A stretch of 64,000 nt of DNA from Bacilli bacterium (GTDB taxonomy: Bacteria; Bacillota_I; Bacilli_A; RF39; UBA660). The stretch is taken from positions 2,581 through 66,580 of the forward strand of contig JAFSAI010000033.1 of the NCBI GenBank assembly GCA_017441065.1, given 5' to 3'. Made by a program: the position numbers and the translations under genes. Below are positions 8,115 through 46,825 of the stretch, one piece after another (the stretch's first letter is position 1; each line of letters begins with the position of its first letter). The notes beneath the pieces are model-generated. The model saw only the letters and a list, made by a program, of their open reading frames with translations. It made no database searches and was not told the DNA's origin.

Positions 8115-8181
8115 TCTTCTTTCTTTAATGCTAACCCTATTATAATATTATGCTTAGCACTTGTCAAGTTATGAGTGCTAA
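8108..8181 (-). promoter_or_regulatory. Two CIRCE (HrcA operator) inverted repeats upstream of hrcA
   Basis: 8154-8181: TTAGCACTTGTCAAGTTATGAGTGCTAA, with arms TTAGCACT/AGTGCTAA. 8108-8134: TTAGCACTC-N9-TAATGCTAA, a weaker second copy overlapping the GTG start of the ORF track. Consensus is TTAGCACTC-N9-GAGTGCTAA. Confidence 0.8.
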
Positions 8182-8208: not shown

Positions 8209-8236
8209 CATAAAAAAGACTAGCAATCTAGTCTTA
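8209..8236 (-). terminator. Rho-independent terminator of surface-protein gene B
   Basis: Hairpin AAGACTAG-CAAT-CTAGTCTT followed on the minus strand by T6. Confidence 0.7.
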
Positions 8237-8303: not shown

Positions 8304-9560
8304 TTAATTTATTAGGAATGGATCTGTTTCTGTTCCTGTTCCACCTGTTATATGTATTGTTGATTCTAGATAGAAGACTGGCTTAACATAAGTTCCTTCA
8401 CGCAACGAACCTTCTTTGTAATAACTAGCAGGTCCTACACCGCCTAAAGTAACTACACCTATAATCCAAGAAGAAAATACTTTACCACTAGTGTAAAGCG
8501 GAGTATTTAATTCAAAATAAACTCCACCATTTACATAGGAACTAAAGTCCATTAATAGTTCGTCTACTCTAGGTGTTGTTAACACCCAACTGCCATCACA
8601 TGAACTAAAACAATTGGCTCCGCTTAAATAATAGTAATCGTGTATATACATTACTCCAACTTTGGCATTTACACTATTGGAAAAAGAATTCTCTAAAGCA
8701 TATATTTCATCTGGAGTAACATTTGCTGAATTACGATTTGAAATTTCACCATATTTCCAAATTGTATTAGAAACTTTATTATACCAAACACTACTTGTGT
8801 TCATATAATCATAATTAGAACTATTTACAAAAAGATTACTATATCCACCGCCGCTTATACCATTTAGCCCTTTAAAAATATCACTATCAGCCCACAAAGC
8901 TTTTTCTTCGGTTTTGTGCCATGCGTACGCAGTATTATTTATAGGTTCCCTTTTGATTAATTTCAATTGTCCACTTGAATTCACACCTAATATTCGATAC
9001 ATATACTTATCTGTATTGTTTGTGCACGTCGACTTATTATTAGTTCCAAAACACACATAGTTATTTACTATATCATTATTGTTACTATTACCATGATATC
9101 TATACATTTCACCTTCCATATTCGTAGTGTTTAAACCTGATGTTGGATTTCTTAGTAAACATTCAGATGCTGTTTCATCTTCATTACACCACTTAGGTAT
9201 ACTAAAATACAAATAACAATAGCTTGTATTTCCTGTATCTACTGTTGCTATATTATTTGTGCTATCATAACTAAGTACTCCATCTAACTTATTTCCATTT
9301 ATATCTATACATCCTGACATAGACTCATTATATGTATATCCACTTGTTGGCCACGTACTAGTTGTATCTTCTTTATATGTTCCGTCTTCTTGTTCTAACA
9401 TTATCGCAAACATATTTGAATTATTTATATTTAAATTTACTTCATCTAAATTTGTATTTTTATTACCATATGATTTATACATCAAAAACAATGTACAGCT
9501 TTCTATTATCACTAACACTAGTATTACTATCACACATATTTTTTTGTTAACAACTTGCAT
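8304..9560 (-). CDS. Surface-anchored protein, family member B. N-term MQVVNKK + TM, C-term ITGGTGTETDPFLIN.
   Basis: ORF track. Its first 120 codons or so are about 93% identical at the DNA level to the ORF at 20506-21645. Variable centre. Conserved blocks YICFGT, YMYRIIG and KIGLMYIHDYYY. Conserved C-terminal motif. Confidence 0.8.
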   Translation of the reverse strand: MQVVNKKICVIVILVLVIIESCTLFLMYKSYGNKNTNLDEVNLNINNSNMFAIMLEQEDGTYKEDTTSTWPTSGYTYNESMSGCIDINGNKLDGVLSYDSTNNIATVDTGNTSYCYLYFSIPKWCNEDETASECLLRNPTSGLNTTNMEGEMYRYHGNSNNNDIVNNYVCFGTNNKSTCTNNTDKYMYRILGVNSSGQLKLIKREPINNTAYAWHKTEEKALWADSDIFKGLNGISGGGYSNLFVNSSNYDYMNTSSVWYNKVSNTIWKYGEISNRNSANVTPDEIYALENSFSNSVNAKVGVMYIHDYYYLSGANCFSSCDGSWVLTTPRVDELLMDFSSYVNGGVYFELNTPLYTSGKVFSSWIIGVVTLGGVGPASYYKEGSLREGTYVKPVFYLESTIHITGGTGTETDPFLIN

Positions 9561-9584: not shown

Positions 9585-9625
9585 TAAGGTAAGTATATAT
9601 TACCCCCCCCGAAGTCAAATTTTTG
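9585..9625 (-). promoter_or_regulatory. Sigma-A-type promoter with a homopolymeric G8 tract (C8 on plus, 9603-9610) inside the -35/-10 spacer. Candidate phase-variation switch.
   Basis: Minus strand reads TTGACT-TCGGGGGGGGTAATA-TATACT, then a 5' UTR with AAGGAAGAAAG SD, then ATG at 9560. Spacer is 15 nt with G8. The same promoter occurs upstream of two paralogues with different tract lengths. Confidence 0.75.
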
Positions 9626-9858
9626 AGAAAATTTTGTTGAGAAAATCAAAAACTCTACTTACCTGTAGAGTTTGTTCACACAATTTGTTTTATTTCAATA
9701 TATTATTATAGGTGATTATATTTATGCCTTTCAAAAACAATCCAACTATATTTATTTTATTTGCAATTGGTTTAGCTATACTTATTTGCTATCAATTACT
9801 TATAACTTTCATTTTACCATTTAGATACAATATTTTTATATTAACCGTCGAAATCATA

Positions 9859-15366: not shown

Positions 15367-15837
15367 TTAGGCTACTTTTAATATTTTAATATTGTATCCA
15401 CCATTTGGGCTTTCAACTAATACTGTATCACCAGTTTTATGTCCCTTAATAGCTAAACCAATTGGTGATTCAACAGATATTTTATTATTAAATGGATCTG
15501 CTTCTACAGAAGAAACTAATTTATATTCTTCTTCATCTCCATCTTCATCTTGGATAGTAACTACTGAACCAATTCCAGCACTACCACCTTTTTTAGCAGG
15601 ATCTACAATCTTACTATGTTCTAATTTATATTCTAATTCTTTTATTCTTGCTTCAATTTGAGCTTGTTCATTTCTAGCTGCATCATAATCAGCATTTTCT
15701 GATAAATCGCCTTGAGCTCTAGCTTCTTTTAAAGCATTTATAATTTCTGGTCTTCTTACGTTTTTAAGTTCATTTACTTCAGTTTCTAACTCTAAATATC
15801 CTTCAGCAGTTAGTTCGAAAAAATCTTCATTTCTCAT
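15367..15837 (-). CDS. greA: Transcription elongation factor GreA
   Basis: 156 aa with an N-terminal coiled-coil carrying an acidic tip and a C-terminal FKBP-like domain. A terminator hairpin (AGCCT-AAATTAA-AGGCT + T6) overlaps the stop. Confidence 0.9.
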   Translation of the reverse strand: MRNEDFFELTAEGYLELETEVNELKNVRRPEIINALKEARAQGDLSENADYDAARNEQAQIEARIKELEYKLEHSKIVDPAKKGGSAGIGSVVTIQDEDGDEEEYKLVSSVEADPFNNKISVESPIGLAIKGHKTGDTVLVESPNGGYNIKILKVA

Positions 15838-19482: not shown

Positions 19483-19686
19483 CTATCCTTTTAACTTTTC
19501 TATCATATTATTGATAAATTCAAATTCACTATCATCTAGCACTTTTAATTTATCTTCTTCTAATCTACCACCATATATATTTTCAGTTAATCGATCTTTG
19601 TATATAACATATTTTTTATTATTCTTTTCTACTTCAAATAATATATCAAAATCTCTTTCTGTACCCTTATTATTCCTTAATATCAT
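19483..19686 (-). CDS. DUF1292 (YrzB-like) small protein
   Basis: 67 aa, acidic. Lies between ruvX and mltG as in B. subtilis. Confidence 0.7.
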   Translation of the reverse strand: MILRNNKGTERDFDILFEVEKNNKKYVIYKDRLTENIYGGRLEEDKLKVLDDSEFEFINNMIEKLKG

Positions 19687-20098
19687 TTTGACACCTTTTT
19701 AAATAACTTTCTAAAATAATACATGCTGCTATACTATCTATTCTATTCTTTGTATTCCTTACATTATCATTATTTAAATGTACTATATCTTCAGCAGTTT
19801 TTGTAGTTAGTCTTTCATCAACTAATTCTACTTGGATATTTTCATTTTCTAACATACTTTTAAATTGCATACTTCTATTACCAGCAAAGCCAATACTTCC
19901 ATCCATATTTTTAGGAAGTCCTAATACCACTAACTTAATATCATAATCATTAATAATTTTTTTTAATTCATTTAATGCAGCATTATAATCTTCAAAATTA
20001 AACTTTATTACTTTTAATGGACTAACTAAAGTGTTTGTTTTATCAGTTATACTAATTCCTAAAGTTTTAGTACCTAAATCTAAACCTAAATATCTCAT
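19670..20098 (-). CDS. ruvX: Putative pre-16S rRNA nuclease / Holliday junction resolvase-like RuvX (YqgF)
   Basis: Begins MRYLGLDLGTKTLGISITD, the YqgF signature. 142 aa. Confidence 0.9.
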   Translation of the reverse strand: MRYLGLDLGTKTLGISITDKTNTLVSPLKVIKFNFEDYNAALNELKKIINDYDIKLVVLGLPKNMDGSIGFAGNRSMQFKSMLENENIQVELVDERLTTKTAEDIVHLNNDNVRNTKNRIDSIAACIILESYLKRCQNDIKE

Positions 20099-20419: not shown

Positions 20420-20442
20420 AGAAAAACTCGCTTTTGCGAGTT
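20420..20442 (-). terminator. Rho-independent terminator of surface-protein gene C
   Basis: Hairpin ACTCGC-TTTT-GCGAGT followed on the minus strand by TTTTTCTTATTT. Confidence 0.7.
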
Positions 20443-20505: not shown

Positions 20506-21645
20506 TTAATTTATAATATATGGATCAGTTGATGTTCCGGTTCCACCTGTTATTTTTACATCAGATTTCAAATAGAATACTGGACGAACCAAACGAGCGC
20601 TGTCCAAATAATTAAGTGTGGGAATTCCATCACTCGATGCCAAAGTCCATCCGCGAAAACTACTAGAACCACCTAAACGACTCATTAACCACTCTAGAAC
20701 ATTTGTAAGTGGAACATTATTGGATAAATGTATCCAAGCAGTTTTTGCATTACTAGGATTTTCTGGCGATCCTCCGCTAGCATAGGCGTAGTAATAATCG
20801 TGTATATACATCAAACCTATTTTTGCACTTATGGTATTCGCCCAACTATCTTCAATTGCATATATTGTTGGGCCATCATAACCACCATTACTTGTTGCAT
20901 CCCCATACTTCCACGTTGTTGTTGCTATTTTACTTTCCCATCCTGTCGGAACATATGTATTATTTAATAAGTAATCATTTCCGTTTAATGCTATATATAT
21001 TAAACTATTTGGCCATATTACATCTGTTGTATCGTCACTCCACCATGCTACTGATGTATTTAAGATTTCTTTCTTTATTAGTTTCATTTGCCCCTCTTCA
21101 GCAATTCCTATTATTCTATACATATATGTAGCTGTATTATTTGTACAATCCAACTTATTGTTTGTTCCAAAACATATATGATTATCTACATTGTCAGTTC
21201 CTTGATATCTATACATCCCTGCTTCTATTGTAGTGTTTAATCCACTAGATGGATTCTGCAAAAGGTATTCACTAGCATTAGGCCTACTAAAATACAAATA
21301 GCAATAACTAGTATTTCCTGTATCTACTGTAGCTATATTATTGGTACTATCATAGCTAAGTACACCATCTAACTTATTTCCATTTATATCTATACACCCT
21401 GACATAGAATCATTATATGTATATCCACTTGTTGGCCATGTACTCGTTGTATCTTCTTTATATGTTCCGTCTTCTTGCTCTAACATTATTGCAAACATAT
21501 TTGTATTATTTATATTTAGATTTACTTCATCTAATGTATTATTCTTATTACCATATGATTTGTACATTAGAAACAATGTACAACTTTCTATTATCACTAA
21601 CACTAATATTACTATCACACACATTTTTTTGTTAACAACTTGCAT
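20506..21645 (-). CDS. Surface-anchored protein, family member C. C-term ITGGTGTSTDPYIIN.
   Basis: ORF track. N-terminal 120 aa nearly identical to member B. Divergent centre. Conserved C-terminus. Confidence 0.8.
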   Translation of the reverse strand: MQVVNKKMCVIVILVLVIIESCTLFLMYKSYGNKNNTLDEVNLNINNTNMFAIMLEQEDGTYKEDTTSTWPTSGYTYNDSMSGCIDINGNKLDGVLSYDSTNNIATVDTGNTSYCYLYFSRPNASEYLLQNPSSGLNTTIEAGMYRYQGTDNVDNHICFGTNNKLDCTNNTATYMYRIIGIAEEGQMKLIKKEILNTSVAWWSDDTTDVIWPNSLIYIALNGNDYLLNNTYVPTGWESKIATTTWKYGDATSNGGYDGPTIYAIEDSWANTISAKIGLMYIHDYYYAYASGGSPENPSNAKTAWIHLSNNVPLTNVLEWLMSRLGGSSSFRGWTLASSDGIPTLNYLDSARLVRPVFYLKSDVKITGGTGTSTDPYIIN

Positions 21646-21659
21646 ATTCTTTCTTCCTT

Positions 21660-21712
21660 ATCTATTTTATAAGGTAAGTATATATTACCCCCCCCCGAAG
21701 TCAAATTTTTTG
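21660..21712 (-). promoter_or_regulatory. Paralogous promoter with a G9 tract (C9 on plus, 21688-21696) in the spacer
   Basis: TTGACT (plus 21699-21704 as AGTCAA), a 16-nt spacer containing G9, then TATACT (plus 21677-21682). Flanks identical to the 9585-9625 promoter. Confidence 0.75.
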
Positions 21713-21826
21713 GAATATTTTGTTATTAACTTCTAACCACAAAAAAAGAATAGATTACTATTCTTTGAATATTTTATCTACCAAATACACTTGTATATTA
21801 TTCTAACTTATAATATACTTTTCTTA

Positions 21827-22139: not shown

Positions 22140-23168
22140 TTATATATGCAATTTTCTTTCTGGTACTATGAAACCAGTAAATATTGGATTTTTATTTATT
22201 TCAGTATCTATAAAATGTAATAAATATTGATCATATTCTGCTGGTGTTAATTCATCCATTTTTCTATATAACTCTCTTACAGCATGAGCCATATCAAACA
22301 TACTACCGTTAGTTTTTTCTATCATTGAAGCAATTGTTTCATCTTTAATTACCAATGAAATTGGCATTCTATATTTCATTTTTCCAGAGAAAATCATCTC
22401 TCTTAAATTCATTCTATCCATTAATTCTTTTACTACTTCAACATCCTTAGTGTAATCTACCATAACAAGATCATTATCTTCACTAAGTTCATTTTGTCTT
22501 TCTTGACTATATACTACTTTTTTATCAGAAATAGTTGCAAGTAATCCTACATATTGTGACAATACATTGTATATGTATTTTTGATAAGTTTGACTTGATG
22601 AACCAATAGAATCAAAATCATCTATAGCTAAAGTTATTGTTTTATAATCTAGTACATTGGTAGCTATACTCAAAAATTCTTCTAATAATATTTCAGGATG
22701 TTCTAATAATACTTTATCAATTCTTTCTGGTTTTTTATTATAATTACCAACCAAATATATTAAATCAACTTTTCTATAGATAACATCTACTCTACTTTCA
22801 AGTCCAACAAAACATTCCATATATTTTTGTGGATGATTTTGTTTTATGAATAATAACATCTTTTTAATAATTAAACATGTTTGGAATAATCTAATTAATT
22901 CAGAATCAGGAATTTGAACAAATTCACCATATCTAACTGTAGCATCAATTAATGCATGTTCTGGGTCATTATAACCATTTATGTATTCTTTAAGTACTAC
23001 TGATTTTCCACAAGCCGTATCTCCAACTAAGAATACTTTACTTTTCTTTTTACTCTTTATTTCATCTATTACCCTATTAACAGGCTCTAAGCTTATCTGC
23101 CTACATTTTTCGTCTGACATAATTGCCATAAATCTTCTCTCTTTTCTGTGAATAATATTATAATCCAC
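22140..23168 (-). CDS. P-loop NTPase of unknown function (AAA-like)
   Basis: Walker A VGDTACGKS and Walker B ITLAIDDFD. 342 aa with no recognisable family signature beyond the P-loop. Sits 19 nt downstream of the membrane protein gene. Confidence 0.6.
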   Translation of the reverse strand: MDYNIIHRKERRFMAIMSDEKCRQISLEPVNRVIDEIKSKKKSKVFLVGDTACGKSVVLKEYINGYNDPEHALIDATVRYGEFVQIPDSELIRLFQTCLIIKKMLLFIKQNHPQKYMECFVGLESRVDVIYRKVDLIYLVGNYNKKPERIDKVLLEHPEILLEEFLSIATNVLDYKTITLAIDDFDSIGSSSQTYQKYIYNVLSQYVGLLATISDKKVVYSQERQNELSEDNDLVMVDYTKDVEVVKELMDRMNLREMIFSGKMKYRMPISLVIKDETIASMIEKTNGSMFDMAHAVRELYRKMDELTPAEYDQYLLHFIDTEINKNPIFTGFIVPERKLHI

Positions 23169-23187: not shown

Positions 23188-23763
23188 TTATTTTAATAAA
23201 AATGAAAAATATTCAAATATAAATGGAGATATAAAATAAAGAATTATATTGGTTAAAAGGACAAATAATATAATATATAAACTATTTTTGAAATTAAATA
23301 TCAATTTATCAAATATTACTTCATCTTTTTTATATATAAACATTCCTATAATAAATCGGCCTATATTAATTGTTTTTTGAATAAAACAGATAATTAATAT
23401 AAAGGATATAAGTTTATTTATAAGTATAAATAAACTTGAATAAATTAAACCACTTATACCAAATGATACTAAAAAAATATTTATTAAAAATCCAATAGAT
23501 AAACTTTCATAAAATAAAAATAATATACTTAAAGGCACTCCTATAATAAAGAACGATAATACTAATAATAAAGACATGATTACTAAATATTTAATAATAA
23601 AATTATATCGGAAATTATTATAATTCTTTAAAGTATCAGCAATTTGAATTTGTGTTTCGGTACTCAAAAAATGATAATATATAAAACCACATGCTATACC
23701 AATTAGGACTACAATAAATATAAACATTAAATATTTTTTATTTTTCTTTAATATTTGCTGCAT
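23188..23763 (-). CDS. Polytopic membrane protein, possibly SpoIIM/DUF95-like
   Basis: 191 aa. Basic N-terminus followed by about 5 TM helices. Its size and topology resemble SpoIIM, but the assignment is not secure. Confidence 0.3.
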   Translation of the reverse strand: MQQILKKNKKYLMFIFIVVLIGIACGFIYYHFLSTETQIQIADTLKNYNNFRYNFIIKYLVIMSLLLVLSFFIIGVPLSILFLFYESLSIGFLINIFLVSFGISGLIYSSLFILINKLISFILIICFIQKTINIGRFIIGMFIYKKDEVIFDKLIFNFKNSLYIILFVLLTNIILYFISPFIFEYFSFLLK

Positions 23764-23853: not shown

Positions 23854-23949
23854 ATGAATAAAAAAACTAGAAAAATTCTAGTATGGGTAATGCTATTCCT
23901 TATGGTTGCATCTTTCGTAGCAAGTATTGCAATATATGCACTAGCTTAA
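23854..23949 (+). CDS. Small hydrophobic peptide, 31 aa (MNKKTRKILVWVMLFLMVASFVASIAIYALA)
   Basis: SD AAGGTGGG 8 nt upstream of the ATG. Single TM. Its 3' end overlaps the pilD stop convergently by 9 nt. Confidence 0.4.
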   Translation: MNKKTRKILVWVMLFLMVASFVASIAIYALA

Positions 23950-24711
23950 TGAAAAGAAAACCAATAAATTAGTAAACTTTTCAATGAAAACAAACATTAT
24001 AATCATTGATGATATTAAAAATGGACCAAAAGGAAGTTCATTTTTTTTATTGAAATAAAGTGTTGCCATAGCATATGGTAATGCTAAAAATGCTGCAAAC
24101 ACAAGTGATATTAAACTAAGTCTAAATCCTATTCCAGGATATCCTAAAGTTAATCCGATTAAGAAACATAATTTAATATCTCCTCCACCAAGAGATTCTC
24201 TTTTATATATTTTATCGCCTATTATTTTTATCAAATACATAACTAAAAATAAAGCTATACCATAAAGAACAGAATAAATTGTATTTGTTAATCCTACTTC
24301 AAAATATCTTATTATAATTATTAAAATACTTCCTATTACTAATGGCGAATCTAATATAATCATATATTTAAAATCACTTACAAATATTATTAATGCCACA
24401 GATATTATTATTAAGTAAATTCCTAATTTTAAAGAAATATCAAAGTACAAATAACCTACTAAGAAAAGAATTCCTGTAGCAAGTTCCATTATTAAATGTT
24501 CTTTACTAATTTTTTTACCACAGTTACGACACTTACCTAATTGAATTATATAAGATACCAAAGGTATCAATTCATACCATTTTAATTCTTTTTTACAAGA
24601 ATCACATCTACTTCTTCCTGTAATTACATTTTCTTTTAAAGGTAATCTTGTTCCTATTACTAAATAGAAGGAGCCTAAAATGGCTCCTATAATAAACACA
24701 CAAACTCCCAT
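23941..24711 (-). CDS. pilD: Prepilin peptidase (A24 family; PilD/ComC)
   Basis: N-terminal tetra-Cys (CDSCKK...CRNCGKK) zinc motif. Polytopic. GGGDIKL and catalytic Asp-containing motifs typical of A24 peptidases. Confidence 0.85.
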   Translation of the reverse strand: MGVCVFIIGAILGSFYLVIGTRLPLKENVITGRSRCDSCKKELKWYELIPLVSYIIQLGKCRNCGKKISKEHLIMELATGILFLVGYLYFDISLKLGIYLIIISVALIIFVSDFKYMIILDSPLVIGSILIIIIRYFEVGLTNTIYSVLYGIALFLVMYLIKIIGDKIYKRESLGGGDIKLCFLIGLTLGYPGIGFRLSLISLVFAAFLALPYAMATLYFNKKNELPFGPFLISSMIIMFVFIEKFTNLLVFFSLS

Positions 24712-24724
24712 TTTTTTAATCCCC

Positions 24725-26299
24725 CTACATTACTTGTTCATACATTCCGAACATTGGAACAATAACAGCAATTATTATACCACCTACTACTATAGCTAAG
24801 AAACTAATAAGTATCGGTTCAATAAATGATTTTAAATTATTTACTACATTACGATGTAATCCTTGATAGTATTCACTAACCTTTTGCATCATATTATCAA
24901 GTTCACCAGTTGATTCACCAGTTACAATCATGAAATAGGCAACATCAGGTACTGCCCAGTGATCTTTGAATGCTTCGCTGATTTTTTCACCTTTAACTAT
25001 ATTATTAATTGTTCTATATAATATAGATTTATAAATTTCATTATTTGTAATTTTACTTAAAATATCAATACTTTCTGTAATAAATACGTTATTTCTTAAA
25101 AGAGATGCAAATGTTTTTGTAAATATGGCTAATTCATTATAAATGATAATGTCTTTTACAACAGGTATTTTCATCATCATTGTTTGCATACTTCTTCTAA
25201 ATGCTTTTACATTTTTATAAGCAACAATTAATACTATTACTGCTATTACTATTAGTAATAAGATTGTAAAGATATTGTTTTGTAAGAAGTGACTTAAATT
25301 AATTATGAATGCCGTAATACCATTTAATTCAATATTATTCTTTTCATATATTTCAACGAATTTTGGAATTATAAATACTAGGATAAATGCTACAACTGCA
25401 AAGGCAAAAATACTAATTATCAATGGATATGTCATTGCACTTTTCATTTGTTTCTTAGTTTCATCAACTTCAGTATAATAGTTAGCCATATCTTCTAGTG
25501 TTTCAATTAAAGTACCACTAGCTTCTGCAGCTTTAATCATATTAATAAGAAGCGGTGGGAACATATTTCCTTGTTTTTCTAAAGCAGATGAGAAAGACGC
25601 TCCTAATGTAAGTTCATAAGACATTGATTGGAATGCTCTGGCTTTACTTTTCTTACTAGCCATTTGTTTTGACAATATTTTAACTGCATCGTTTAAAGTG
25701 ATTCCAGCTTTTAAATATGTAGATAATTGAGTTAACCAGAATATTAATTCTTTAGTAGACATTTTTGGACTACCAAATGAAGATTCTTTAAATAAGAAAT
25801 TAATCATTGGGCTAGTTTTAATACTATATACTGTATAACCTTCATTTACTAAGAATGAATTTATATCTAATTTAGATAAACCATTCATAGTACCAGTAAT
25901 TATTTTTCCTTGTTTATCTCTAACTTTAAAATAATAAACATTAACTTCTTTACTACGAGTCGCTCCTGTAGTTTGTAAATCTTGTAATAATGCTTGATAT
26001 TCTTGTTCTAATTTTGCTAATGTTTTAGCACTATAATTATAAACTTTTTCTTTTTTCTTTTTATTATCGTAACCATCATCTTCATGAGGTCCTAAAGCTT
26101 CTTTAGTTCTTTTATATGCTTTATCTAATTTCCAACTAGTACTATTATATAAATATACAAACAAATCATAAGTACAAGCTTTTAATCCAATAAAAGCATA
26201 AGAAAAAATTGAAAATATTACTAAACAAATATTTTTTAAAAACTCTAAAAATAAAACATACCACACTTTTTTTTCGTTAGGTGTTGCAACATTATCCAT
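24725..26299 (-). CDS. pilC: Type II secretion / type IV pilus platform protein (GspF/PilC/ComGB family) with an extra N-terminal extension
   Basis: Two GspF-type repeats and 3 TM segments (about 400 aa C-terminal), preceded by an about 130-aa N-terminal region containing a TM. Adjacent to pilD. Confidence 0.8.
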   Translation of the reverse strand: MDNVATPNEKKVWYVLFLEFLKNICLVIFSIFSYAFIGLKACTYDLFVYLYNSTSWKLDKAYKRTKEALGPHEDDGYDNKKKKEKVYNYSAKTLAKLEQEYQALLQDLQTTGATRSKEVNVYYFKVRDKQGKIITGTMNGLSKLDINSFLVNEGYTVYSIKTSPMINFLFKESSFGSPKMSTKELIFWLTQLSTYLKAGITLNDAVKILSKQMASKKSKARAFQSMSYELTLGASFSSALEKQGNMFPPLLINMIKAAEASGTLIETLEDMANYYTEVDETKKQMKSAMTYPLIISIFAFAVVAFILVFIIPKFVEIYEKNNIELNGITAFIINLSHFLQNNIFTILLLIVIAVIVLIVAYKNVKAFRRSMQTMMMKIPVVKDIIIYNELAIFTKTFASLLRNNVFITESIDILSKITNNEIYKSILYRTINNIVKGEKISEAFKDHWAVPDVAYFMIVTGESTGELDNMMQKVSEYYQGLHRNVVNNLKSFIEPILISFLAIVVGGIIIAVIVPMFGMYEQVM

Positions 26300-26687: not shown

Positions 26688-27291
26688 GACCTTTTAATAT
26701 AAGACATTCATACAATAATTTTATTTTCTTTTTAAGTGGTACTTTTTTTATTAAATCCTTATTTTTGTTTAATAAATATTTATAATAATCTTCATTATTA
26801 CTTATACCATATTTTAATTCTTTTTTAGTTAACTTTTGTTTTTGTTTAATACATAAAAGTATTATATAGTAATGATTATTTTCATATATTGCTTGTTCAT
26901 CTACTATTTTATAACCAATTTCATTTATTTTTTTTCTTAGTTTATAGTAATCATTATTACTAGCTAAAACTAATTTGTTGGGAGTTTTTTCATTGTCTAG
27001 AATTTTTAAAATAGTACTAGTTCCCATACCTGCTATTACAGCAGTATCAAAATATACAGGAACATCTTTAAAACCATCACTTACATAAGTTTTGATATCT
27101 AAATTATATTTTTTAAAATTATTTCTGGCAACATTTAAAGCATTCTCTGATACATCACTTGCATAAACTTCTTTACACAAATTATTTTGTTTTAAATAAA
27201 TACTTAAATATCCATGGTCACAACCTACATCTAGCACAGTATCGTTTTCAGATATTTCTTTAGCTAAAACTTTAATTCGTTCACTATTCAT
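26671..27291 (-). CDS. trmK: tRNA (adenine22-N1)-methyltransferase TrmK (YqfN)
   Basis: SAM-MTase motif VLDVGCDHGYLSIYL. Conserved position immediately downstream of sigA, as in B. subtilis. Confidence 0.8.
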   Translation of the reverse strand: MNSERIKVLAKEISENDTVLDVGCDHGYLSIYLKQNNLCKEVYASDVSENALNVARNNFKKYNLDIKTYVSDGFKDVPVYFDTAVIAGMGTSTILKILDNEKTPNKLVLASNNDYYKLRKKINEIGYKIVDEQAIYENNHYYIILLCIKQKQKLTKKELKYGISNNEDYYKYLLNKNKDLIKKVPLKKKIKLLYECLILKGLIEKK

Positions 27292-28391
27292 TAATTATCT
27301 AAGAAATCTCTTAATTTTTTAGCTCTAGATGGATGACGTAATTTTCTTAATGCTTTAGCTTCAATTTGTCTGATTCTTTCTCTTGTTACATTAAATCTTT
27401 TTCCAACATCTTCTAATGTATGACAAGTTCCATCAGTAAGTCCAAAACGAAGTTCTAATACTTCTTGTTCTCTAGGTTGTAATGTTTGTAATACGTCTTT
27501 TATTTCTTCTTTTAATATTTCATTTTCTGTATATTCTTCTGGTGATAAACTACTTTCATCTTTTAGAAAATCTCCTAAATGTGAATCATCTTCTTCTCCA
27601 ATCGGAGTTTCTAAAGATACTGGTTCTTGACTAATTTTAATAACTTCTCTTACCTTATCAACAGAAATACCCATTTTCTTAGCAATTTCTTCATCAGAGG
27701 GTTCTCTATTTAATTCAAGAGTCATTTGTCTTTGAACTCTAACCATTTTATTGATTGTTTCAACCATATGAACTGGTACACGAATAGTTCTTGCTTGATC
27801 TGCTAAAGCTCTTGTTATTGCTTGTCTAATCCACCATGTAGCATATGTAGAAAATTTATAACCTTTATCATAATCAAATTTTTCTACTGCTTTCATAAGC
27901 CCAATATTTCCTTCTTGGATTAAATCTAAGAATAAAAGTCCACGACCTACATATCTTTTAGCAATACTTACAACTAAACGTAAATTACTTTCTGCTAAAA
28001 TTCTTTTAGCTTCTTCATCACCATCAGCAATACGAATACTAATATTCATTTCATCTTCACTTGATAAAAGACTAATTCTACCAATTTCTTTTAAATACAT
28101 TCTTACTGGATCGTTAATATTTACATCCTTAGTAATTTCAGCATCATCTAAAATTATTGGTTCTTCTTCTTGAATTTTAGTTGGATCTTCTCCTGAAGCT
28201 TCAGCATCTTCTTCAGTTACTACAGAAATTCCTGCATCTACAAATGAATTATATAATTCATCTAATGTATCACTATCAATTTCTAAACCTTTTAAAGCTG
28301 CTGCTAGTTCTTCAAAAGTAATATAGCCTTGTTCTTCACCTTTCTTAATTAAACTTTCTTTTCTTTCTTCAAATGTTTTAATTTCTACCAT
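27291..28391 (-). CDS. sigA: RNA polymerase principal sigma factor SigA (RpoD)
   Basis: Regions 1.2-4.2 present. Signatures [18 protein letters not shown] and [29 protein letters not shown]. Confidence 0.97.
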
Positions 28392-30156
28392 TTTTTACAC
28401 TTCCTTTTTTTAATTCTAATATTTTATTTGATATCTCAACTTGTTTGTTAATATCTGTTTCCCTTTTTAATTCTTCTTTTAATTTTTTTATTTCTTCTTT
28501 ATTCAATATATCTTTTATAGCATTAATATATTGCATAAAAGTAGTTTCTTCTAAATCTTCAAAATCAATACTACCACTTATATTATTAACTAAATCTCTA
28601 ATATTATTGTCATTTTCGCTATAACTAATAAAATCCGCAAGATTTATTTTACCATATTTTTCAATATAATACTCAATTTCTCTAACTAAATTTCTTTCTT
28701 CAGGATTTTTTAAAAAACCTAACTTAGTATTAAAAATCTTCAAATACTTCGCATCACTCATCATATAATAAAGTATTTTATTAACACATATCTGATATTT
28801 ATCTTTTCCTATTTTGATAGTAGGAATAACAGCTTGATTAATTTCTTTCACTTCTTCAAAAGTAATTTCTTGTTTTAATACTTCATAATCTATGTTATAT
28901 TCATCACTTAATTTTTTTAAAGTAATCTCTTTAGTTAAATTATCCGCACCATCTAACATCTTTAATACTGATTTAACATAATTTATTAACTCTTCTGTAT
29001 TATTTAAATTTTTATTTTCTTTTAAATAATTTAATTTGTAATCAAAATAATTTAAACTATGTTTTATTGTATCATTAAATGCTTCAATGCCATATTTAAC
29101 AATATACTCATCTGGATCTTTAGCTCCATGTAATCTAACTACTTTGGTATCAATGTTATTCTTGACTAGTTCATTACCAATGTTAACTGTTGCAAGTTCT
29201 CCTGCATTATCATTATCAAGCATTAATATTATTGGTACTCTAAGTTTTTTCAAAATATTAACTTGTTCTTTAGTCATTGCTGTACCCATTAATGCTAAAA
29301 CATTTCTAACACCACTAGAATACATTCTAATAGCATCCATATTTCCTTCAACTAAAATAGCACATTTAGCTTCTCTTATATAATTTTTGGCATTGTGATA
29401 GTTAAATAATATATTTCCTTTTTTATAAATACTAGTTTCTTTGGTATTTATATATTTAGCACTATCTTCATTATTAAATATTCTTCCTGTATAACCAACT
29501 ACACTACCATCTAAATTACATATTGGAATCATTATTCTATTAACAAATTTATCATAACCTGTTATGCCATCTTTAGTAATGAGACCTAACTCATCTAATT
29601 TATTTATATCATATCCTTTTTTTGTAAGTACATTATATAAATAAGTTGAATCATTAAGGGTAAGTCCTATTTTAAAATCTTTGATAATTTCATCCGTAAT
29701 ATTTCTTTGTTCTAAATATTCTTTGGCTTTTACCCCTTCTTTACTATTTAAATTGTTTTGTAATATTTTAGTAGTAAAATCCATTATTTCATATTCTAAC
29801 TTAAATTTACTATCTTTTTGTGTTGTCGGAACAAAATCTAAAGGGATTCCAACTTTATCTGCAACCTTTTTTACTGCTTCAATATAACTAATATTTTCAT
29901 ACTCTTTTACAAAAGTGAAAACATTACCACCTTTATTACATACAAAGCATTTAAATAATTGTCTTTCTTTAGAAACAGACATACTTGGCGAATGATCGTC
30001 ATGAAAAGGACACACGCCAAAATAATTCTTGCCTTGCATCTTTAGTGGTATATAATCAGAAACTATACTTACAATATCAGCAGAATTTCTAATGTCATTA
30101 ATTTTATCTTCACTAATTAATTGCATTTTTGTCCCCTCTATTATATATATTGTCAA
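28378..30156 (-). CDS. dnaG: DNA primase DnaG
   Basis: Zinc ribbon [13 protein letters not shown]...CFVC. TOPRIM domain (EGNMDAI, DND). C-terminal helicase-interaction domain. dnaG-sigA operon. Confidence 0.95.
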
Positions 30157-38146: not shown

Positions 38147-38236
38147 ATTTCAAGTCCATTTCTATTATATATAAATTATATAATACTTAGTAAAACTGAG
38201 TCAAGTTAAGAGACAAAAAAAGAAGTCTTTAGACCT

Positions 38237-39235
38237 CTAATTTTCTCCTTCTTCCAACATTTTAGTTATAAACAAACCATAACCTGTTAGGGGATTATCT
38301 ACAATAACATGAGTAACTACTCCTACTATCATATCATTTTGCATTATTGGTGAACCACTCATCCCTTGTACAACGCCACCAGTTTTTTTAATCAATTTTT
38401 CATCAGTTATTTCAAACGTAATATTTTTAGTATCACTTGTCTCATTAATATTAGTTATATTAATTTCAAATTCTTCTACTTTTTCTCCATCTAACACTGT
38501 GTAAATATAAGCTTTTCCTACTTTTATATTATCTTTATCGCCTACTTTTACAAGTTCCATATCATTTATGTTATAAGCGTATTTACCAAATATACCATGA
38601 TTAGTATTTTTATAAATACTTCCATATATAGTATTATAAAAATATTTTGCATTTTTACTTCCCGCATGTCCTATTTCAGACTTATCTATTGAGGTAATTG
38701 AATTTCTAAAAATACTTCCACTTTTTATTTCTACTATTTTACTACTATTCCCTTCAATTACTTCATGACCTAAAGCACCATATATTAATGTTCCCGGATC
38801 TATATAAGTAAGAGTTCCAATTCCTGTTATACTATCTTTAACATATAGTCCAGTCTTATAAATTCCATTTTCATTTATTAATTCAAGTGTTGTACGCTTT
38901 TCATCCTTACCTCTTTTATAAGTGATTTCAACACTTCCATCAGTTGTATGTTTTTCTATTTCTTTAGAGAGTTCACTTAAAGAATAAACTTCTACATCAT
39001 TTATCTTTTTGATATAATCGCCCACTTTTAACTTTGGATTTCCTTTATTATATTTTCCATCTATTTGATAAAATCCAACAATAAGCACTCCATCACATTC
39101 AATTTCTATGCCTAAAGTATTACCACCCCTATAAATATAGTCTGAATAAGCAAATACATTAAGTGGCATCAATAAAATACTTAAAAACAATATTAATTTT
39201 TTCATACATATCACCATCAATATTATTGTGCCCAC
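38237..39235 (-). CDS. spoIVB: SpoIVB peptidase (S55 family, PDZ + serine peptidase)
   Basis: Signal anchor. PDZ domain. Catalytic motif VVQGMSGSPIMQNDMIVGVVTHV typical of SpoIVB. Confidence 0.85.
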   Translation of the reverse strand: MGTIILMVICMKKLILFLSILLMPLNVFAYSDYIYRGGNTLGIEIECDGVLIVGFYQIDGKYNKGNPKLKVGDYIKKINDVEVYSLSELSKEIEKHTTDGSVEITYKRGKDEKRTTLELINENGIYKTGLYVKDSITGIGTLTYIDPGTLIYGALGHEVIEGNSSKIVEIKSGSIFRNSITSIDKSEIGHAGSKNAKYFYNTIYGSIYKNTNHGIFGKYAYNINDMELVKVGDKDNIKVGKAYIYTVLDGEKVEEFEINITNINETSDTKNITFEITDEKLIKKTGGVVQGMSGSPIMQNDMIVGVVTHVIVDNPLTGYGLFITKMLEEGEN

Positions 39236-43582: not shown

Positions 43583-43606
43583 AAAGGAAAGTATTTCTAC
43601 TTTCCG
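43580..43606. terminator. Bidirectional terminator between the convergent DUF368 gene and surface-protein gene E
   Basis: GGAAAGTA-TTTC-TACTTTCC flanked by A5 and T runs. Confidence 0.7.
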
Positions 43607-43617
43607 AAGGGTTAAGT

Positions 43618-43644
43618 CTATTTTAACGTCTTCGTTGACGATTG
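43618..43644 (-). repeat. Conserved 3' UTR element, copy 4 (core only: TATTTTAACGTCTTCGTTGACGAT)
   Basis: Lies immediately after the stop of gene E. Lacks the GAAAGATA hairpin half. Confidence 0.65.
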
Positions 43645-45378
43645 TTAACTTATTATATATGGGTCAGTTGATGTTCCGGTTCCGCTTGTAATTTTTATAG
43701 ATGATTCTAAATAAAAGAATACTCGAAACCAATTAGAAGAAGTAGTAAGACTATAACTTGCGATTGTTCCATAACTAGGGTCCATATAATATGCAAAAGT
43801 TGTACCATTTTTTACTATCATCCACTCTTTCATACCAGCACCAATACCCCGAAACATCCACACGTTTTTTAATGCACTGTTTGCACCAGGATTTCCTCCT
43901 ATATAAGCATATAAATAATCACTTGGATACCCTAATCCTATTTTCGCAGATGTGCTATTTCCCAAATTGATTTCAGCATCGTAGGAATCATCTCCAGAAT
44001 ACATATCAACAATCGAAAAAGCAATTTGACCATATTTCCAATTAACTAGTGCTATTTTACTATCCCATCCACTTGGTACATAGGTAGTATTTGTTAGAAA
44101 TGAACTTCCATTTATTGCTAGATATATCGAAGATGCAGACCATGCAATATCACTTCTTGAGGAGTGCCATTTTAAACCACTCATTTGTTTTTGTTTAATT
44201 AATTTTAACTTACCAGATGAATCAACACCAATTATTCGATACATATATACTTCTAGATTACTTGTACATGTTGATTTGTCTGTTGTTCCAAAACATATGT
44301 AATTATTATCAACTACATCACCAGTTCCTTGGTATCTATACATATCACCATATTCAGCTGTTGAGATATTAGCTATTTCTTTTAATTTACTACTTCCATA
44401 TTTACTTGACATACATGTTCCCATATTTGTATATGATGAACATAATGTGTATAAACTTGGTACTGGTTTGGCGATGCTTATAGCACTTGTTCTATGTCCT
44501 ATGTTTCCTGCTTTATCTTTAACATGAATATAATAATTACCTGTTGCTGTTACTGCTGTTGTACTTGTAAATGTTGTTCCACTTACTTCATCCCATATAC
44601 ATCCGCTTGTTGATGTACTACTTGTATTTACACATACATGTGTTACTCCACTTCCTGTTTCTGTTACTATTACATTTGCTGTTCCTGCTCCACTATCACT
44701 TGCACTTGTTATTACTGGTGATACGGTATCAAGGAACACACTGTCACTTACTACTGGTGATATGTTTTCTGCTGCATCTCTTATAAATGCATATCTTGTA
44801 TTACTTCCTTGTGTGCTTATTGTATAACTTGGTGTTACTGAATTACCTGTTGTGCTTACCCAATTACAACTACTTGAATTGTTTTCTGGATTTATACAAT
44901 AACTTGTTATGTCATTATCTGTCCATGATAGGTATGCTGTTGTATTTGTTGTATTTATATATTCTGGATTAGTACTTCCTCCTAGATAAAATGTAAATGT
45001 TTGTGGTGGCACTTTATCTAAATCAAAGTACAAATAACAGAATAATGTTTTATTACTACTAACTGTTATTTTATTATTGTTATATGATATTACATCACTT
45101 ACTACTTTTCCTTTATTATCTGTACAATTACTTCTTTCTTCATTAAAGTAATATTTTAATCCTATGGGATAGTATTCACTATCTGTATATTCCTCGTATT
45201 CTCCATTTTTATTCTCTACATACATTGAAAACATTTCTTTATTTACTTTATTTTCTTCTTTTATTTCTTTTATATCTTTATTACCATATGATTTGACTGA
45301 TAAATATGTAAACACACATTCTATTACTACTAATAAAGTTATCGTTATTATCCAAAGTTTTTTGTTAACAACTCTCAT
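43645..45378 (-). CDS. Surface-anchored protein, family member E, with an inserted Ser/Thr-rich module. C-term ITSGTGTSTDPYIIS.
   Basis: N-term MRVVNKK + TM. An about 200-aa S/T-rich insertion (VSPVITSASDSGAGTANVIVTETGSGVTHVCVNTSSTSTSG...). Conserved blocks YICFGT, VYMYRIIG and KIGLGYPSDYLYAY. Confidence 0.8.
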   Translation of the reverse strand: MRVVNKKLWIITITLLVVIECVFTYLSVKSYGNKDIKEIKEENKVNKEMFSMYVENKNGEYEEYTDSEYYPIGLKYYFNEERSNCTDNKGKVVSDVISYNNNKITVSSNKTLFCYLYFDLDKVPPQTFTFYLGGSTNPEYINTTNTTAYLSWTDNDITSYCINPENNSSSCNWVSTTGNSVTPSYTISTQGSNTRYAFIRDAAENISPVVSDSVFLDTVSPVITSASDSGAGTANVIVTETGSGVTHVCVNTSSTSTSGCIWDEVSGTTFTSTTAVTATGNYYIHVKDKAGNIGHRTSAISIAKPVPSLYTLCSSYTNMGTCMSSKYGSSKLKEIANISTAEYGDMYRYQGTGDVVDNNYICFGTTDKSTCTSNLEVYMYRIIGVDSSGKLKLIKQKQMSGLKWHSSRSDIAWSASSIYLAINGSSFLTNTTYVPSGWDSKIALVNWKYGQIAFSIVDMYSGDDSYDAEINLGNSTSAKIGLGYPSDYLYAYIGGNPGANSALKNVWMFRGIGAGMKEWMIVKNGTTFAYYMDPSYGTIASYSLTTSSNWFRVFFYLESSIKITSGTGTSTDPYIIS

Positions 45379-45394
45379 ATTATCTTACCCTTCT

Positions 45395-45445
45395 TTTATT
45401 TATAAGGTAAGTATATATTACCCCCCCCGAAGTCAAATTTTTTCA
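45395..45445 (-). promoter_or_regulatory. Paralogous promoter with a G8 tract (C8 on plus, 45421-45428) in the spacer
   Basis: TTGACT (plus 45431-45436), 15-nt spacer, TATACT (plus 45410-45415). Flanks identical to the other two copies. Confidence 0.75.
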
Positions 45446-45679
45446 AAAAAATTGTTGAAAAGATTATGGGCTAAAATCACAAAGTAAAAATAATGGCCAA
45501 GCCATTATTTTTGGAACAAAAGAAAACATGAACTGTTTGTTAGTTTTTGGAGGTATATTTCAAAGTGGATTTGTTAAATTAATAACTAAGTGTAAATGTA
45601 ACCAAATATTCTATATTTATAAAAAATCCCCTTCACTCATAAGATATGCGAAATATCCTAAAGTGAAAGGGCTAATTAA

Positions 45680-46825
45680 TTATATTAAATAAAACACTGT
45701 ATATAATAAGAATGCTACTAATAATGTATATACTATTAATCCATTAATAGTTTCTCTTTTTGTACTTTTATATTTTACTCCTACTATCATAGTAGCTAAG
45801 TATCCACCAATAAGTCCACCAATATGAGCACCATTATCTATTCCTGACATAGTAAATCATAAAAATAAATTTACAATAATAATCGGTATAATTTGACTAG
45901 TTAGTGCATTTGATAGATATAATCTATAATGATAGCCAAAATATAATAAAGCTCCCATTAAACCAAATATAGCACCACTAGCTCCTACTGATAAAGAATT
46001 TTCATAGAATATAATACTAAATAAGCTTCCCATTAAAGCACTTAATATATAAATAATAAAGAATTTTACTTTACCTAAATAAGTTTCTACTTGAGTACCT
46101 ATTATCCATAAAGAATACATATTAACAGCTAAGTGAATAACACTTCCGTGTAAGAAAGCATTAGTAATTAATCTAAATACTTCTCCATTTAGTACTAATC
46201 CTCTGTTATTTGCTCCAAGTAGAATTAATGATTCAGTAAAATTATTTGTAAGAAATAATGATAATAAATACATTACTATACAAGCAATAATTAATAATTT
46301 AGTAACTATTATTTTCTTTGGTTTGAAAACATTTTCAAACTTTTTATTTTCTGCTTCAGTTTTCTTATTAATATCATCAGTAACATCTATAATTTTATCT
46401 AAATTATCAGTCTTTTTAAATTTATTTGTCTTTATCTTTGGATATACACTACTTAAGAATTTATCTTTTTTTACATCTTCTATATCAGTAATATTAACTG
46501 TTGCAATTAAGTTATCTTCTTCAGTAACTTCTACTCCTTTATTTAAATCTAAACATATATTTAATGCATTCATTTTAAATGATAATGTCTTCTTCTTAAT
46601 TTGTTTTATTACAAATTGCATTTTAAACATATCCATATTATATTGTTCTGTATTATGAATATATTTAGAATTAATTCTTACTATTTTATATGGTGCATCT
46701 AAATTTTCTAACCATATTTCATTTTTAACCCCTTGCACATTTATTGGAGTATAATTCTCCTCCGTTACAAAATAATGTACAAGACTCATAATCATTTCAT
46801 CTTTATTATTTAATATTGTGCTCAT
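45680..46825 (-). CDS. Rhomboid family intramembrane serine protease (YqgP/GluP-like) interrupted by a single in-frame TGA at 45857-45859
   Basis: Cytoplasmic N-domain, then TM core with the GASGAIFGL catalytic Ser motif (track ORF 45857..46825). After the in-frame TGA, the reading frame continues unchanged as FTMSGIDNGAHIGGLIGGYLA (catalytic His motif) to TAA at 45680-45682. Terminator hairpin CCCTTCACT...AGTGAAAGGG downstream. Confidence 0.6.

Follow-up and report, generated by a model that had tools for sequence, protein, structure and literature searches.

How can a run of eight guanines between the two hexamers of a promoter be explained, in DNA with a GC content of 26%? The question is raised by a stretch of 64,000 nucleotides (nt) from an uncultured member of the Bacilli (assembly GCA_017441065.1, contig JAFSAI010000033.1), which is called the window throughout. 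There, such a promoter (copy 3 of the block described below, on the minus strand near 45.4 kilobases (kb)) precedes the gene for a putative surface protein of 577 amino acids (aa), and two sister copies precede paralogous genes. An initial annotation had interpreted the element as the third copy of a phase-variable promoter and each family member as an independently switched unit. In our view, the best explanation, and one that is probably correct, is a simple-sequence-repeat (SSR) phase-variation switch built into a promoter of the sigma-A (sigma-70) type. The phase-variable character of the promoter is supported by the comparison of assemblies, in which the difference between G8 and G9 is the sole insertion or deletion (indel) in near-identical DNA. 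The positions of all features are collected in Table 1.

The promoter block and its occurrence

Copy 3 has the layout TTGACT-TC-GGGGGGGG-TAATA-TATACT, whose middle element is the G8 run, and its two hexamers are separated by a spacer of 15 nt. The same hexamers and spacer had been reported in the initial annotation and are borne out by our reading of the minus strand. The claim that the conserved block is identical among the copies also holds for copy 1, where the exact 27-mer recurs; copy 2 differs by carrying G9. Three other candidates for a -10 element lie past the tract (TAATAT at 10 nt, TATATA at 13 nt and TACTTA at 17 nt). Judged by eye, they have a poor match or the wrong spacing. From the position of the -10 hexamer, transcription is predicted to start at about 45403. 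The ATG (45378) is found 31 nt beyond this hexamer, a distance which is the same for all three copies of the window. In addition, terminator hairpins lie 25-55 nt 5′ of the -35 hexamer in all three copies. Delimited by a terminator on one side and by the start codon on the other, the block is the only plausible promoter. The conserved stretch with A/T tracts next to the -35 hexamer may function as an UP element and possibly as the site of a regulator. A search of Rfam gave no match in or near the promoter element.

The occurrence of the block is far beyond chance. The expectation from dinucleotide shuffles is 0.00 occurrences for the 27-mer and 0.21 for runs of at least seven G, the latter to be compared with 7 overlapping matches in three tracts. 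The distribution of G/C homopolymers over the 64 kb is discontinuous: six have a length of 5, none has a length of 6 or 7, and the remaining ones have lengths of 8, 8 and 9. All three runs longer than 5 are the promoter tracts.

Scans of genome and metagenome contig collections with the promoter pattern, including a pattern that covered only the part 3′ of the tract, gave 0 matches, and related loci were therefore gathered by exact-protein look-up. The resulting alignment comprises seven promoter copies from six genomic loci (A to F in Table 1) and reveals a cassette of roughly 60 nt, which spans the CAACAA motif and the A/T tracts, both hexamers, the leader and the first codons (MRVVNKK or MQVVNKK). 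The CAACAA motif and the A run beside the -35 hexamer are kept across the six loci, whereas the DNA 5′ of CAACAA is unrelated between them. Copies 1 and 3 have 44 nt exactly in common, AAAAATTTGACTTC-G8-TAATATATACTTACCTTATAAA, while the proteins are 34-41% identical (local BLASTP). This invariance at six loci, despite unrelated upstream DNA and proteins that have diverged to such an extent, suggests that selection acts on the cassette. The sole match to the promoter pattern in a viral collection, on IMG/VR contig L029 (5174-5202), was rejected as a chance match, being located inside a coding region (TTTGACTTAACAAGTAATATATACTTACC) and devoid of a G run. On present evidence, the cassette is thus not phage-borne.

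Tract length and the proposed switch

Polymorphism of the tract, on which the initial annotation had made its interpretation depend, is present and tract-specific, with G8 and G9 both found at loci A, C and D. Among the complete tracts of the six loci, seven are G8 and ten are G9. At locus C, the BLASTN alignment of contig L011 with the window extends over 4141 nt and contains two mismatches and one indel, which is the G tract; the alignment of L011 with L012 (2721 nt) contains one indel, again the G tract. At locus D, L004 and L005 are aligned over 3882 nt with no mismatch and with one indel at the same element. These stretches are 99.9-100% identical, and their sole indel consists of one G. 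They also provide an internal control, as each contains 2-7 A/T runs of 7-8 nt, none of which differs between assemblies. The G tract must therefore mutate much faster than the surrounding DNA. Moreover, the presence of both lengths at three loci implies at least three independent events, against 0-2 substitutions in the same DNA. At locus A, the strain represented by L001 has 97.5% identity with the window at the DNA level and 94% at the protein level. At the sequence level, this pattern is the signature expected of slipped-strand mispairing at a contingency locus.

The loci vary independently, since the window holds G8, G8 and G9 within one assembly. The notion that each family member is switched on its own may hold for the members with a tract. 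It does not extend to the members without a tract, namely a paralog of 429 aa in the window and the proteins P0006, P0015, P0017 and P0019. Hairpins flank all three poly-G genes, which fits insulated, monocistronic units, and because each gene sits between terminators each paralog could switch alone. Upstream of copy 3, the hairpin AAAAATAATGGC-TTG-GCCATTATTTTT, followed by T5, folds at -11.7 kcal/mol (z = -3.2) and, being symmetric, could act on the plus strand too. It had been presented as an extra terminator. The hairpin is real and comes in addition to the stronger terminator of the upstream rhomboid gene, but it is not special to this copy, as copies 1 and 2 also have a hairpin and a T run.

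In the proposed switch, slipped-strand mispairing during replication would add or drop one G in the spacer run. The spacer would thereby change between 15 and 16 nt, with 17 nt as a presumed further state, and so would the contact of RNA polymerase with both hexamers. By analogy with Neisseria meningitidis porA and Treponema pallidum tp0126, a G10 tract (17 nt) would give the strongest promoter, G9 (16 nt) would be ON or intermediate, and G8 (15 nt) would be weak or OFF. Among the three copies, a consensus promoter scanner set to spacers of 16-18 nt detects the one with G9 (TTGACT-16-TATACT, 10/12 matches) and misses both G8 copies, so that a slip by one G would move the promoter into or out of workable spacing. 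Copy 3 is predicted to be weak or OFF, because its 15 nt fall outside the usual range of 16-18 nt. Canonical promoter rules appear to apply in this organism: the gene of the primary sigma factor, sigA, is present in the window, hrcA has a perfect TTGACA-17-TATAAT promoter (8167..8139), and spacers of 17 nt are also found at minus-strand intergenic sites 5′ of lon, of the trigger factor gene and of the open reading frame (ORF) at 15367-15837. With the same cassette preceding six or more dispersed paralogs, a population would show combinatorial mixtures of surface proteins. The presumed pay-off would be evasion of phage or of host antibody, or varied adhesion.

Several points weigh against such a switch. 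Only G8 and G9 have been assembled, and the predicted optimum of G10 (17 nt) is never the assembled allele, which makes the true ON length uncertain. The comparison is one of majority alleles between assemblies, and both the rate of switching and its reversibility within a clone are deduced only from the fact that tract changes recur at three loci. Tract length could also act in a graded manner, not all-or-none. In addition, some family members have no tract, as listed above. Contigs ending in or near the tract (L006, which starts with G8; L007, which starts with GGGGG; L008 and L010, which start 14-15 nt past the tract) were considered as a sign of within-sample mixtures. They are ambiguous in this respect: loci D and F have 155 nt exactly in common across the cassette, which exceeds the assembler k of 141, and this repeat alone can break contigs. 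Lastly, Illumina chemistry is known to perform poorly on poly-G.

This error-proneness, the fact that the comparison sequences are all short-read metagenome assemblies and the several contigs that end at the tract would be in line with sequencing or assembly artefacts at a fixed, ordinary promoter. We consider this very improbable. The difference between consensus alleles is reproduced in at least two pipelines (MEGAHIT-style k141 contigs and ‘XIEF21’ scaffolds), G9 at locus E is common to three assemblies, GCA_017466775.1 among them, and each length is backed by several assemblies. Furthermore, errors can explain neither why the tract lies exactly in the spacer of a cassette that recurs in the family nor why the 64 kb contain no other G/C run of more than 5. 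Less probable still, by a small degree, is that the block is the footprint of a recent duplication or gene conversion of the 5′ cassette, in which the G run hitch-hikes and plays no role in expression. Identity enters the 5′ coding region, with 85-155 nt exactly common among loci A, D, E and F, and such identity is typical of gene conversion among paralogs. However, the 44-nt core is exactly the same in copies 1 and 3, in spite of the divergence of the leader, of the coding sequence and of the upstream DNA. A neutral run of G8-9 in a genome of 26% GC is expected to decay, yet its length remains 8-9 at all six loci and in both strains, and the existence of paralogs with other promoters indicates that the cassette is not needed merely to express the family.

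The alternative to which we give the most weight, although we find it unlikely, retains the hypermutable tract as a rheostat, or one input among others: a regulator acting at the CAACAA and A/T stretch would determine expression, with tract length as no more than a means of tuning. At the Treponema tprE/G/J promoters, CRP is known to act together with poly-G length (PMC7864442). Conservation reaches about 25 nt 5′ of the -35 hexamer, the observed difference is of 1 nt only (15 vs 16 nt), and other members of the family lie beside a divergent XRE-type helix-turn-helix (HTH) gene, so that the family is also classically regulated. Yet the upstream stretch is only partly conserved, its TCAA...TTGA dyad being found at loci A, D and F and missing from the other three (B, C and E), and it looks like generic A/T tracts of an UP element. 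No regulator gene is adjacent at any of the poly-G loci examined.

Table 1. Location of the promoter copies, terminators and genes in the window, and tract lengths at the six loci
Feature	Position	Strand	Description
Promoter block, copy 3	45436..45410	minus	full sequence TTGACTTCGGGGGGGGTAATATATACT
-35 hexamer of copy 3	45436..45431	minus	TTGACT, 5/6 against TTGACA; same in all seven aligned copies from six loci
Poly-G tract of copy 3	45428..45421	minus	G8 in the promoter spacer, hypermutable element; G8 or G9 in other assemblies
-10 hexamer of copy 3	45415..45410	minus	TATACT, 5/6 against TATAAT; 15 nt past the -35 hexamer
Conserved A/T-tract stretch	45457..45437	minus	CAACAATTTTTTTGAAAAAAT, opens with CAACAA; resembles an UP element
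5′ leader	45409..45379	minus	Shine-Dalgarno GAAGGG (45393..45388); same in loci A, D, E and F
Family gene, 577 aa	45378..43645	minus	downstream of copy 3; largest of the window members
Sister promoter, copy 1	9618..9592	minus	G8 at 9603..9610; 5′ of the 418-aa paralog (8304-9560)
Sister promoter, copy 2	21704..21677	minus	G9 at 21688..21696, spacer of 16 nt; 5′ of the 379-aa paralog (20506-21645)
Upstream terminator hairpin, copy 3	45512..45486	minus	12 pairs, 3-nt loop, then T5
Terminator 3′ of the 577-aa gene	43605..43586	minus	hairpin
Terminator of the rhomboid gene	45671..45628	minus	followed by AUUUUUU; -22.7 kcal/mol, z = -5.5
Terminators of copy 1	upstream 9673..9650; downstream 8235..8216	minus	hairpins
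Hairpins of copy 2	upstream about 21766..21740; downstream 20442..20425	minus	upstream hairpin AT-rich; downstream terminator
Rhomboid gene	45680-46825	minus	Pfam match; in-frame TGA at 45857-45859
Fourth paralog, 429 aa	36857-38146	minus	31-38% identical to the others; found by BLASTP against the window ORFs
Fixed promoter of the fourth paralog	38204..38175	minus	TTGACT-18 nt-TATAAT, without G tract; 5′ of the 429-aa paralog
sigA, primary sigma factor	27291-28391		regions 1.1 to 4
Locus A (rhomboid, gene, VCA0040-like)	copy 3		window, L002 and L003 G8; L001 G9
Locus B (before hrcA)	9.6 kb		window G8; L009 G8
Locus C (before ireB-ruvX)	21.7 kb		window G9; L012 G9; L011 G8
Locus D (protein P0004, between histidine kinase and DHH-CBS genes)			L004 G9; L005 G8
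Locus E (P0009; holA, gene, mnmA)			G9 in three assemblies, including NCBI GCA_017466775.1
Locus F (P0003)			G9 in two assemblies

The surface-protein family and its neighbourhood

The gene preceded by copy 3 had been described as the largest, Ser/Thr-rich member of its family. This is correct: the 577-aa protein contains 23.7% Ser+Thr (background 12.5%), and 31.9% within residues 121-305. The number of family members in the window is four and not three, as found by BLASTP against all window ORFs. The three poly-G copies are located at 9.6, 21.7 and 45.4 kb with housekeeping genes between them, and other loci lie beside such genes as HisKA, holA and mnmA. AlphaFold (AF2) models were obtained with a predicted local distance difference test (pLDDT) score of 88.4 for the 577-aa protein and 88 for the 379-aa protein. 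In their layout, an N-terminal transmembrane (TM) helix (residues 6-32) is followed by a linker that is disordered and by a small beta N-domain; the C-terminal part is an alpha/beta domain of ~270 aa, which ends in a conserved VRPVFYL...GTGT.TDPYII motif. Two Ser/Thr-rich immunoglobulin (Ig)-like domains, at about 129-302, are present in the 577-aa protein only, and inserted Ig-like domains give rise to the size differences between paralogs.

In Foldseek searches, the Ig-like part matches the adhesins SiiE, GhpA and SraP and other tandem Ig/FN3 proteins. The C-terminal domain has no significant match in the PDB, and its weak matches are mostly C-type-lectin-like. At the sequence level, the three window proteins have no Pfam match at E<=0.01 and no NCBIfam or PDB sequence-profile assignment. 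Homologs number 254 at E<=1e-3, the named ones originating from metagenome-assembled genomes (MAGs) of uncultured ‘Bacilli bacterium’, and one of them carries a precomputed PF19789 match. This family, DUF6273 (PF19789), gives weak matches in 5 of 34 short family members (best E = 2.5e-4) and none for the window proteins. DUF6273 has been described as C-type-lectin-like and as a target of diversity-generating retroelements (DGRs) in phage receptor-binding proteins (PMC10743442). We tentatively describe the C-terminal head of the present family as DUF6273-like and C-type-lectin-like. A membrane-anchored, outward-facing binding protein would be the most economical interpretation of the models.

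The mode of anchoring was considered from the N-termini, MQVVNKKICVIVILVLVIIESCTLFLMY and MRVVNKKLWIITITLLVVIECVFTYLSV, in which the Cys is preceded by E-S or I-E and does not form a lipobox. A canonical lipobox was not found in them, and the hydrophobic helix runs past the Cys (IIESC or VIEC, with more hydrophobic residues following). A type IV prepilin signal, suggested by the prepilin peptidase and PilC-like genes of the window and by one homolog with an N_methyl match, was rejected for lack of a Gly-Phe/Thr-Leu-x-Glu motif. The two genes concerned (Peptidase_A24 and T2SSF) are located by trmK-like, sigA and dnaG in the regions 23941-26299 and 27291-30156, and probably belong to the apparatus of a type IV pilus or a competence pseudopilus. 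Neighbouring ORFs of 191 aa (23188-23763) and 342 aa (22140-23168) have no Pfam match. With respect to coding tandem repeats, Tandem Repeats Finder returned only low-scoring AT-rich rows (scores 38-46) for the region 43600-45600.

Not all members of the family are preceded by the cassette. The 429-aa paralog has the same order of terminator, promoter, gene and terminator and directly follows the spoIVB terminator; its fixed promoter makes it a naturally non-switching counterpart to the three poly-G copies. In P0006, the promoter (TTGACA-17-TATTAT) is distant and contains no tract. P0015, P0017 and P0019 (L018-L026) have no cassette and adjoin the divergent XRE-type HTH gene (77-100 aa), an arrangement that points to control of this subset by a classical repressor. 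The family would hence mix switched and conventionally controlled members.

Upstream of copy 3, the gene annotated as rhomboid has the Pfam match that this name requires, but the window copy contains an in-frame TGA. Contigs L002 and L003 read GGA (Gly) at this codon, which is their sole difference from the window in 4.4-7.7 kb. Truncation leaves 322 of 381 aa and removes the last TM segment with the GAHIGG motif. The TGA represents a nonsense allele of this strain or, alternatively, an error of assembly. An alternative genetic code was rejected, as most long minus-strand frames have no in-frame TGA and L002 and L003 have GGA. The ~115 nt between the two terminators (45513-45627) contain no convincing ORF but a minus-strand CCTCC motif, are conserved in L001-L003 and give Rfam matches at chance level only; they could encode a small RNA or be spacer DNA. 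At locus C, ruvX of L011 (3048-3476) is called as two fragments of 59 and 78 aa, while an intact gene of 142 aa is present in the window (19670-20098) and in L012. As L011 and the window differ by two substitutions in 4.1 kb, one of these probably creates the stop.

Sample names such as XIEF21-1 suggest that the host inhabits the ruminant gut. The window contains a gene for SpoIVB peptidase (38237-39235), and GerQ is found next to family members in L019, L021, L022 and L024-L026. In view of these sporulation genes, and although its GC content is 26%, the host does not belong to a reduced lineage of the mollicute kind.

Relation to known phase-variable systems

In mechanism, the element is of the porA/tp0126 type, and in organisation it is Vlp-like without being a member of the Vlp system; the mechanism itself is not new. 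As in N. meningitidis porA and T. pallidum tp0126, a G run is located in the spacer of a sigma-70-type promoter of a surface-protein gene, and the tracts of 8-11 are comparable. In these two systems, slippage by a single G shifts the spacer about an optimum of 17 nt: porA transcription is lost on shortened spacing, and tp0126 is optimal at 17 nt (PMC7864442). Both are, however, single genes of Gram-negative or spirochaete pathogens, whereas one cassette serves at least six paralogs in an uncultured commensal Firmicute here, with observed states of 15 and 16 nt only.

The tprE/G/J/L genes of T. pallidum resemble the present case in that they form a paralog family with a promoter G tract of ~7-11, mostly 8-9 G (PMC7864442), whose length varies within and between isolates (PMC7864442). 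Their tract lies just 5′ of the transcription start and not cleanly between the hexamers, as it does here. Moreover, the permissive state of tpr is <=8 G, while the geometry of the present promoter predicts the opposite, with longer tracts (to G10) being stronger.

The organisation is closest to that of Vlp in Mycoplasma hyorhinis, and also to M. arthritidis maa2 and M. mycoides vmm, where each gene has its own spacer-tract promoter (PMC2268961). Tracts in the spacer switch vlp, maa2 and vmm, and Vlp expression is independent and combinatorial, each gene being ON or OFF (PMC2268961). In Vlp the 5′ region and the signal sequence are conserved and the distal parts of the proteins are divergent; similarly, the six loci share the leader and the signal-anchor start. 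Unlike the Vlp lipoproteins, the present proteins have a TM anchor and no canonical lipobox, and they have no significant coding repeats, in contrast to the in-frame tandem repeats which give Vlp its size variation. Vlp genes are clustered, whereas the present ones are dispersed among housekeeping genes. Furthermore, vlp uses poly-A and vmm TA repeats, and the present cassette uses poly-G in a genome of 26% GC.

With the DUF6273 proteins, which are DGR targets and include the phage ‘tentaclins’, the family has in common a weak C-terminal match combined with Ig-like or FN3 domains (PMC10743442). In DGR targets, variation arises from retroelement mutagenesis, whereas it would arise here from ON/OFF switching of paralogs. 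A limited literature search found no description of the cassette, nor of switches based on spacer poly-G in Firmicute MAGs of the gut or rumen.

Beyond the phase-variation switch at a single promoter, a wider proposition concerns the system as a whole: a commensal gut Firmicute may run a Vlp-style combinatorial system, in which at least six lectin-like, Ig-stalked paralogs stand behind a portable poly-G cassette and switch independently. Here we are evenly divided. As part of this proposition, the cassette would be a reusable module, and duplication or gene conversion would account for its spread.

To our knowledge, phase variation by slippage is understood in detail almost exclusively from pathogens (Neisseria, Haemophilus, Campylobacter, Treponema and mycoplasmas). 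New in the present case are the host lineage, an uncultured low-GC commensal Firmicute, a protein family without Pfam assignment and a portable cassette at multiple loci. The proposed switch offers a handle on this family, whose members are likely to be exposed and to experience fluctuating selection, for instance as receptors of phages, as adhesins or as targets of antibodies. Differences in tract length are directly visible in public metagenomes, and the signature TTGACT-YC-Gn-TAATATATACT can be used to count ON and OFF states per locus in rumen reads. Annotation and assembly pipelines should be used with caution at such tracts, where contigs tend to break or to give one arbitrary state. If the Vlp-style proposition is true, SSR phasomes would be a feature of uncultured gut Firmicutes, beyond the classical pathogens and mycoplasmas, and may serve as a defence against phages or host immunoglobulin A (IgA) that target these proteins.

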